Below are positions 1 through 3,000 of a stretch of DNA of 9,804 bases, one piece after another. Within the stretch, counting starts at the first letter, position 1. Each line of letters starts with the position of its first letter. Origin of the DNA: a virus (Duplodnaviria > Heunggongvirae > Uroviricota > Caudoviricetes); IMG/VR virus record IMGVR_UViG_2671180662_000011; one strand, given 5' to 3'. Made by a program: the position numbers.

Positions 1-3000
1 CGGCAGCGGGCTTGTAATGGGTTAAGTGATAACAGATGTCTGGAAATATAGGGGCAAATCCAGATAGTGAAATCGGTAGAGCGGGATATGAAGGTTGCCG
101 TGGATCGCTTTAACCGCGAGTACAACAAAAAAGTGGGAGTGGATTAACAGAAATGGCCCCGTACGGAAGTGCGGGGCTGATTAAGGAATAAACACACATT
201 AACCTGTAATAACCGGAGCTATTAACATATAGTCAGAAAGAGTATTTCATGTGAGACAGAGAGCCGATTTATGTTTAATGAAGAAAAAGTTGCGCAAATG
301 GCAGCGTATTTGCTGAAAAAGCATGGCGGATCTATGCGTTTCATTAAGCTGATGTATCTCTCTGACCGCAAAGCAATGGAGTCTTTAACCGGGAAGGGGA
401 GAGGTTTGAATGCTCCCCCACAATTCCCCGGCATCAAATCTCCATGCAGGTGAACTATTTTACCCCCAGCGGCAAATCGCAAAAACAATCAGTGCGATCG
501 AAATGGCAGCCACTACAATTGCAAATGCTTCAGGCTAGGTCATTGGCGTACCTCCTTCGGCGGTTCTGGTAGCGGCATCCAGTGGGTTACTTCTTTGAGA
601 TGCAGGTCTTCGCCATCACCGTCATCCCAAGTGGGATTGCCATCATTAAACCAGTCGCCATATACGCCGACCTGAGTGTTGGGGATGCTTGGTGGGTAGT
701 TGTTTTTAAAGTCAGCTGCTAACACATAGTATTGTCGCTCTCCCATTTCTGGCATTCGATCACTACAGCTTATCCAACCATCCGGAGTTACCGGAACTGG
801 CGGAACGGCTGTTTGCTCTCGAACGTCATTAGTCGCTATCGGTTCTGCTGCCAACTGACTGGCATATTTGTTAATGGTAACGATAAGCTCTTGCTCAGCC
901 TCATCCAGACAATCACCGATACCTCGCCTGTCACCGTCAAAATCATCGAAATCGGCACGAATCTTGGCAACCTTCTGGATTGCGGACAACACCTCACTAG
1001 GAATTACCGGATAGTTGGTTGACGTTTCCGCGATTTCCCGAAAATTATTGGTTGACGAATTCTTGTTTTCCCGAAAGTTTCCGGACTGAAGCATGGCGGC
1101 GCGGCAGGCATTCCAGCCTCTTACCTCTGCAATAGCGGCAACCGCATCAACCGCGTACATGCTAAGAGGATTAGGCATTGGTTTTTCTTCCGGTACTACT
1201 GGTGCTGGAGGGGCGGCGTAAATGCCCTCTATCACTAAATGTTTGCGCTCAAAATCATCTGGCTCTCGATGATATACGTAACTCCAATCACCAAGGTTAT
1301 CATTGCGCCTGCAACGGAAACCTATCGGCTCGGCTTCCAGCGCTGCCAGAGCAATTCGTGCCAGTTCTTCCGCTTCTTCTGCTGGCAGTACAACGTTGCT
1401 ACCAGGTCCGTATGTTTCGCGCCACTGCTTGATTGTCAGTAGTCGCTCTTTGGTAATAGTGATCATGCCGCGTTTCCTTCTTTCTTATTAACAATTACAC
1501 CGTCATATATTTCATTAAGGTGCCCTCTCAACTCCATGCGCCTTAATGCAGATAACATGTAATCGCATTCAACCTGCTTATTTATCTTCAGGGTTACCCC
1601 AACAGCAATTCCCCTTGGGCCATCCATGTACTTTCCGTACTCTTCCGTTAACAACGTGAAGTAATCCCCAGCCAGGTGGTAAATCCTCAATTGAAATAAT
1701 TCCCGGCGCACTAATAAAGAATCGCCAGTCGCCCATTCCAAGAGACGGATTTTTACGAAAACGCTTTTTTCTATCTGCCAACAAGTCAGCACGAGAACAT
1801 TTCGCCTCTATCAGGCATGATGCTGAATTTCTGAATCCCATAGCATCTGGCTGTTCTCCGGTACTGGTTACAGCTATAAAGCGGTCATGAAAACAAACCT
1901 TGAACCCGTTGCGCTTAAGGAACTTGTACGCAATCTGACAGAGTTCGCGGTGTGTTAACGCCATATCACTCTCCTTTGATGCGAATGCCAGCAAGCCAGT
2001 TTCTTATGCCGATATATTCAGCGTTCCGGAAACCGCTTTTTACATATATAAATGGCAAGCGAAGATTGTGACCATTGACTGCCAGGTAGTCTTTACAACC
2101 CTGTTCGGTGAAACAGCAGGTAACGAATTCATCAATATCTTTCACAGCAACGCGCCGCCATTTTTCTGGTGGCTCTCGAAAGTTTTCATGAAGTAGCTCG
2201 AGACGACGACTATGGCGTTTATTGGCTTCATTGCCATCTTCGTCAACCCAGACAATCCGGTCATGGTCATAATCAGCATCAACAACGATTTCGCGCTTTT
2301 GATACACACAAAACATGGGATCTGACGTTATTCGATTGTCCTGTGTTCGAATATTTTCACCGATGATGCCAAACGAATCTGGTGCAGATTTTGTCTGCAT
2401 CTCTTCGATACGTTCAGCCATCGCAGCACACTCTTCAAAGTTGCTTAATGCTTTTCGCTCCCATTCGGCGCATTGTTTTTCCAGTTCTGCTATGCGCTTA
2501 CTTCCATCCGCGATTACTCCCTCGTAATATTCACGCTGCTCGTTGAGTTTTGATTTTGCTGCTTCAAGCTCAACGCGCAGCTTCCCTACCGTAAGCGCAA
2601 TATCCTCGTTCTCCTGGTCGCGGCGTTTGATGTATTGCTGGTTTCTTTCCCGTTCATCCAGCAGTGCCAGCACGGTAGCCGGATTGGCTGCGGCGATGAA
2701 TTCAGCATTGGCCTGCTGTTCCATTTGGAAATCTTCATCGAAACCGCTTTCAGGATGTGCTCCTTCAATTCTGCAAATGGGAATATATCCAGCAGCCTCG
2801 CGATGAATTAGTGCATCATCACCATCAAATCGGTTCTCTCCATATTCGAGCGACCACTCACCACGCGTTGCTTTTTCTGCCTTTTCACGCAGTACCTGAT
2901 AGTTAATCTCGCTCATTTTTCTCTTCGCTCCGGTATACAAGAATTACAACGTCACCTCTGCTAATTACGCGAGCTGGATCTCCTGGCTCCATGCTGTCAA

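Follow-up and report, generated by a model that had tools for sequence, protein, structure and literature searches.

In Caulobacter crescentus, the PD-(D/E)XK endonuclease MmcB is induced as part of the SOS response and confers protection from mitomycin C, and SOS-regulated protection against DNA cross-linking agents is known only for this protein (PMC9578287). Whereas the Caulobacter protein is SOS-regulated, a related family is encoded by prophages instead of by the SOS regulon; it lies below the Pfam threshold for the MmcB-like proteins (PF06319) and has GMGDWRF and KPFxxNKQxE...ALRR motifs of its own. A literature search found no paper on this phage nuclease family. Its intact form is a 171-residue hypothetical protein of lambdoid, Shiga toxin (Stx)-converting and P1-like phage-plasmid genomes (e.g. 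NZ_CP027440.1, 596599-597114; UniRef V5URG6_9CAUD; phrog_9263/phrog_631). Here we describe a copy of its gene in a 9,804-nucleotide (nt) stretch of the IMG/VR virus record IMGVR_UViG_2671180662_000011, hereafter the window, where two overlapping open reading frames (ORFs) on the minus strand, frames A and B, are almost certainly two parts of a single prophage nuclease gene of 171 codons that a private 14-nt deletion has disrupted. Codons 1-128 and 133-171 are the same as in the intact gene except for the change E86A, and the neighbors are likewise those of the intact gene, with Ead/Ea22 upstream, DUF551 downstream and an identical start/stop coupling. In contrast to the intact gene, the window lacks 14 nt, which costs it codons 129-132 and puts the remainder out of frame. 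The feature is genuine yet ordinary, a frameshift pseudogene derived from a prophage nuclease gene that is widespread but uncharacterised.

Frame A extends from an ATG at position 1964 to the TAA at 1578-1580 and encodes 128 residues, or 138 if a TTG at 1994 is taken as an alternative start. Frame B, in the +1 frame relative to A, opens with a GTG at 1792, ends with the TGA at 1463-1465 and encodes 109 residues, the two sharing an overlap of 215 nt. These coordinates and the frame relation agree with the original prediction, which had also correctly placed the nuclease motifs, identified here as P39-D40 and E53-A-K55, in frame A and noted the coupling of the frame B stop to the next gene, brought about by the ATGA at 1463-1466. 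It had further described the tail of frame A as unlike a protein, but the segment in question, GNCCWGNPEDK, is native and conserved in the homologues.

The lesion becomes apparent on comparison with complete E. coli genomes. In a megablast search of 5,426 such genomes with positions 1400-2050, the locus was present in 1,423; strain 2012C-4502 matched best, with 14 nt more than the query. Its sequence is 99.3% identical to the window over 3,511 nt, with four differences in all, namely two single-nucleotide polymorphisms, a 9-nt tandem copy elsewhere and the 14-nt gap at 1580-1583. The corresponding locus of 2012C-4502 (L001, 1587-2102) is one 171-codon ORF that consists of frame A, the residues P-F-I-G and, at its end, the 39 C-terminal residues of frame B. 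When aligned to this intact ORF, the deletion junction in the window (minus strand AACCTTTTATTGGG, plus strand CCCAATAAAAGGTT) falls at 1580-1583, with a placement that is ambiguous by 2 nt owing to TT/AA microhomology. Codons 129-132 (P129, F130, I131 and G132) are gone, and GAT AAA CCT TTT ATT GGG AAT AAG has become GAT AAA TAA G, in which the TAA is the codon right after K128. An indel is therefore found at the frame switch itself, and its length of 14 nt is not divisible by three. A single nuclease gene disrupted by a frameshift was one of the possibilities initially raised, and this part stands; the lesion, however, is not the 1-nt indel that had been placed at 1600-1660, the protein has 171 rather than about 167 residues, and neither a homopolymer, for which a check had been suggested, nor a slippery site was found at the frame switch.

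Profile searches and relatives alike support the unity of the two frames. The profile phrog_9263 aligns to frame A at profile positions 62-187, whereas frame B is matched only at its residues 71-109, which correspond to profile positions 192-230; the gap of four positions between the two matches is consistent with the deletion. The phrog_631 profile covers frames A and B in the same manner. A collection of 5.8 billion proteins contained 319 homologues, of which the best 120 are mostly 160-185 residues long and full length, with sources that include Escherichia, Shigella, Salmonella, Klebsiella, Cronobacter, Serratia, Morganella, Providencia and phages. When one genome was scanned for each species, 31 relative loci emerged with a range extending to Shewanella, Alteromonas, Salinicola, a Rhodobiaceae metagenome-assembled genome and a Flavobacterium, and in all 29 full-length relatives from other species the gene is a single ORF. 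With 31 single-ORF relatives, it is untenable to regard the 14 nt as having been inserted into every other copy. Individual homologues as well as a single PHROG profile thus span both frames, the very check that had been proposed for a disrupted gene.

The two-frame state is a derived, rare condition that is not conserved. The intact 171-residue form occurs in identical form on at least 1,000 contigs, whereas the 128-residue product of the window was found on only three. The exact 128-residue product, within DNA that is 100% identical also in the flanks, is present in GCA_001017225.1, an NCBI assembly, and in a Logan assembly made from SRR16058740, and the occurrence of the same allele in two independent assemblies indicates that it is real. 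The exact junction sequence had no matches in IMG/VR viral and metagenome contigs, which suggests that the allele is rare. No junction-spanning match was found among the 5,426 complete E. coli genomes, an absence that is read from ranking and identity bands and not from hit-by-hit inspection: the top E. coli match across the junction contains the 14-nt insert, and all 925 records covering at least 80% of the junction query align to it with 80-90% identity and are taken to carry the insert. Among 57 full-length hits sampled at even intervals the lengths were 516 (44 hits, among them H156, with an alignment starting at base 5), 514 (12) and 511 (1), and never 502. Other E. coli strains carry independent small out-of-frame indels in the same nuclease gene, leaving overlapping ORF fragments that are annotated separately. 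These lesions comprise the loss of 2 nt near codon 52, that of 5 nt in codons 134-136, a frame shift at codon 129, and a change from G4 to G3 combined with the 5-nt deletion, and none of these copies shows the 14-nt deletion of the window.

The intact protein is predicted to be a small metal-dependent MmcB-like PD-(D/E)XK DNA nuclease with D40, E53 and K55 as the catalytic residues. In an alignment of 42 sequences these three residues are invariant and form the D...(D/E)-X-K motif typical of such enzymes; the alignment also displays a GMGDWR motif, a WGLL segment and a conserved C-terminal KPFxxNKQxE...ALRR...G block. Also invariant are P129 and F130, both deleted in the window, and E137, A144, R146, R147 and G152 in the C-terminus. 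An AlphaFold2 model of the intact protein, with a predicted local distance difference test (pLDDT) score of 89.6 and a predicted template modelling score (pTM) of 0.83, has an alpha-beta core of the restriction-endonuclease-like alpha-beta-beta-beta-alpha-beta arrangement and a C-terminal helix, residues 134-150, with pLDDT above 90. A Foldseek search of viral models with this structure led to proteins named 'MmcB-like DNA repair protein', and a profile search of the PDB aligned the catalytic motif, marginally (E 0.29), to 3dnx (SPO1766), which we take to be a member of PF06319; the intact protein resembles this solved representative of the family in structure. In Pfam and NCBIfam scans neither frame nor the intact protein gave a hit, and PF06319 was not matched at E-values up to 10; the best score of a distant relative on PF06319 was 17.1 bits (E 0.0048), below the gathering threshold of 22 bits. 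The initial assignment to MmcB-like PD-(D/E)XK proteins thus holds at the level of the fold, but not at the Pfam threshold. Judging by fold and gene position, the enzyme might act in the processing or repair of DNA in the early lytic phase.

The intact family is widespread in prophages and phage-plasmids, being present in 931 of the 5,426 complete E. coli genomes, although neither Pfam nor NCBIfam has a model for it. Approximately 250 of 1,300 E. coli gene copies are carried by plasmid records whose size, about 60-110 kb, is that of phage-plasmids, and an identical copy is found in MH445381.1, a record named 'Escherichia phage P1', which indicates that the gene circulates in lambdoid prophages and phage-plasmids alike. 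In RefSeq, the Prokaryotic Genome Annotation Pipeline (PGAP) labels the intact 171-codon ORF of 2012C-4502 (L001, 1587-2102; L002 and L003, 1587-1765) as a 'frameshifted' pseudogene of 179 nt, apparently because the reference is the 58-residue truncated form from EDL933, WP_001356547.1. The same form also seeds phrog_16308. The label is an annotation artefact spreading from a pseudogene.

In the window, the whole pseudogene, that is the 171-codon gene of the phrog_9263/phrog_631 family minus 14 nt, occupies positions 1463-1964 of the minus strand, as delimited by the alignment to the intact ORF and the PHROG coverage of both frames. Its 5′ part in frame A (1581-1964) corresponds to native codons 1-128 and encodes the PD-(D/E)XK core, including the catalytic motif with P39-D40 at 1845-1850, E53 at 1806-1808 and K55 at 1800-1802 (E53-A54-K55 at 1800-1808), and contains a single missense change, the E86A at 1708. 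The premature TAA stop (1578-1580) results from the codons AAT AAG (N133 and K134) being read out of frame just past the junction. The 3′ remnant (1463-1582), preserved in frame B and delimited there by the profile match to its residues 71-109, comprises native codons N133-A171 with the native TGA and encodes the C-terminal helix 134-150 with the invariant E137, A144, R146, R147 and G152. The first 70 codons of frame B (1583-1792) are native codons 58-128 in a shifted register and, on the evidence weighed below, noncoding. A Shine-Dalgarno sequence of the nuclease gene, AAGGAG, can be read at 1971-1976. Upstream, the gene with the Pfam Ead_Ea22 domain (1966-2940, minus strand) has its stop codon at 1966-1968, 1 nt away from the frame A ATG; downstream, the DUF551 gene (540-1466, minus strand) has its start codon overlapping the native nuclease stop in the ATGA, an arrangement shared with the intact locus L001 (2099-2102).

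The decay of the gene can be outlined as follows. The ancestral gene is an ORF of 171 codons that belongs to the early-left accessory region of a lambdoid prophage and is packed tightly between the Ead/Ea22-like and DUF551 genes. In this lineage a 14-nt deletion flanked by 2-nt microhomology, probably a replication slip, took out codons 129-132 and threw the rest of the gene out of frame. Translation that starts at the native ATG would now terminate at the TAA following K128, and the last 39 native codons together with the native stop persist in the +1 frame, where, joined to 70 accidentally stop-free codons upstream, they give the appearance of a 109-codon ORF. The 128-residue product keeps the catalytic core, but without the conserved C-terminal helix and its invariant E137, A144, R146, R147 and G152 it would most likely be inactive or unstable. 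The coupling to the DUF551 gene has presumably been lost as well, since ribosomes would now stop 112 nt upstream, and a GAAGGAA sequence before the ATG of the DUF551 gene may permit independent initiation.

No observation contradicts the pseudogene reading. The 128-residue fragment may retain residual function, and the intact E. coli gene already contains a 92-codon open stretch in the +1 frame, which is mildly unusual, as only 1.2% of 5,000 synonymous-codon shuffles contained one as long. This stretch, along with the coupling of the frame B stop to the next gene, could speak for frame B (1792-1463) as an independent small gene that covers the 3′ end of a nuclease gene with a natural terminus at 1578, an option that had been entertained from the outset. 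We consider it to have next to no probability. The homologues do not stop at the end of frame A; they run past it, and their single frame continues through the C-terminus of frame B, residues 1-70 of which are without any profile match. From codon 58 to codon 127 (E. coli numbering), the +1 frame is interrupted by one or more stops in 27 of the 29 relatives, including the two closest with 90-91% amino-acid identity. Synonymous differences to these two relatives affect 52-54% of the codons in the overlap and 39-44% of those outside it, and since they are not reduced in the overlap, no second frame appears to constrain it. A nested gene would be marked by an alternative frame that is both open and conserved and by reduced synonymous change, and the locus displays no such pattern. 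The 92-codon stretch is best taken as a compositional accident, because it is not conserved in the relatives, and the coupling to the DUF551 gene is explained by the place where the 171-codon gene natively ends.

Recoding, which had also been put forward, would require a programmed or tolerated +1 frameshift near AAA-TAA-G at 1578-1583, giving rise to a 166-residue fusion without residues 129-133. Frame B is indeed the +1 frame and holds the native C-terminus, and low-level +1 slippage can occur where a stop codon directly follows a lysine codon, as it does here. Nevertheless, we find such a mechanism highly improbable, as none of the relatives uses two frames and the two-frame state arises from a 14-nt deletion known in only two other assemblies. 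Neither a prfB-like CUU-UGA slippery codon nor a Shine-Dalgarno-like stimulator 3 nt upstream is present at the switch, positions 1578-1590 contain no slippery motif, and a search of Rfam found no recoding element at the locus. The sole A6 run (AGAAAAAAG, approximately 1760-1768) is unchanged in the intact copies and would lead to the -1 frame, which closes at once, and any fusion product would be devoid of the invariant P129 and F130. The conserved two-frame architecture, slippery site and stimulator that characterize programmed ribosomal frameshifts are thus all missing. Finally, short indels are common among assembly artefacts, and the two frames could stem from a sequencing or assembly error in a gene that is intact in the organism. 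This, too, seems very unlikely, as a loss of 14 nt outside any homopolymer is atypical of read errors and the identical allele is found in two independently assembled data sets in addition to the window. For annotation, the frameshift pseudogene implies that the two ORFs belong together as one pseudogene and not as two hypothetical proteins, and it is of little importance beyond that.

The surrounding genome is also decaying, as evidenced by a split ynfE/ynfF-type gene and a truncated paralogue beside an element of the IS3 insertion sequence (IS) family. The former, a molybdopterin oxidoreductase gene at 5143-7184 on the minus strand, is divided into a 615-residue ORF with Fe4S4 and Molybdopterin domains and a 102-residue ORF with a Molydop_binding domain, which overlap at 5337-5451, and probably represents a further frameshift pseudogene. 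The paralogous ynf gene (7242-8408, minus strand) is without the N-terminal Fe4S4 domain and about 258 profile positions, and homology to E. coli genomes ends at approximately 8272. It is followed by a 345-residue ORF (8334-9371, plus strand) with no Pfam hit and by an IS3-type HTH_Tnp_1 ORF (9405-9743). The segment 7242-9743 looks like an IS-associated rearrangement in a pseudogene-rich genome, possibly one similar to Shigella or enteroinvasive E. coli.

Several minor features of the window were also observed. The Rfam family sRNA-Xcc1 (RF02221) is matched twice on the minus strand, at 4117-4202 with 74.5 bits and at 4653-4737 with 53 bits, the gathering score being 53. Each match is located at the 5′ end of an ORF for an AntA-domain antirepressor (3453-4238 and 4326-4739), the second of which is a truncated duplicate. 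In the small hypothetical ORF at 271-453 on the plus strand, a 9-nt tandem duplication at 354/355, GAAGCTGAT, which adds the residues KLM, is present in 2012C-4502 and single-copy in the window, and represents an in-frame length polymorphism. Bases 1-62 of the window are unmatched in the otherwise 100% identical assemblies L004 and L005, and all E. coli hits begin at base 63, which may reflect a rearrangement or insertion boundary. Just beyond the left end of the window, at 7818-12387 of L004, lies a gene for a 2,793-residue polyvalent protein with LPD5, LPD1, MuF_C and LPD38 domains, which is found in the matching assemblies and in 2012C-4502.
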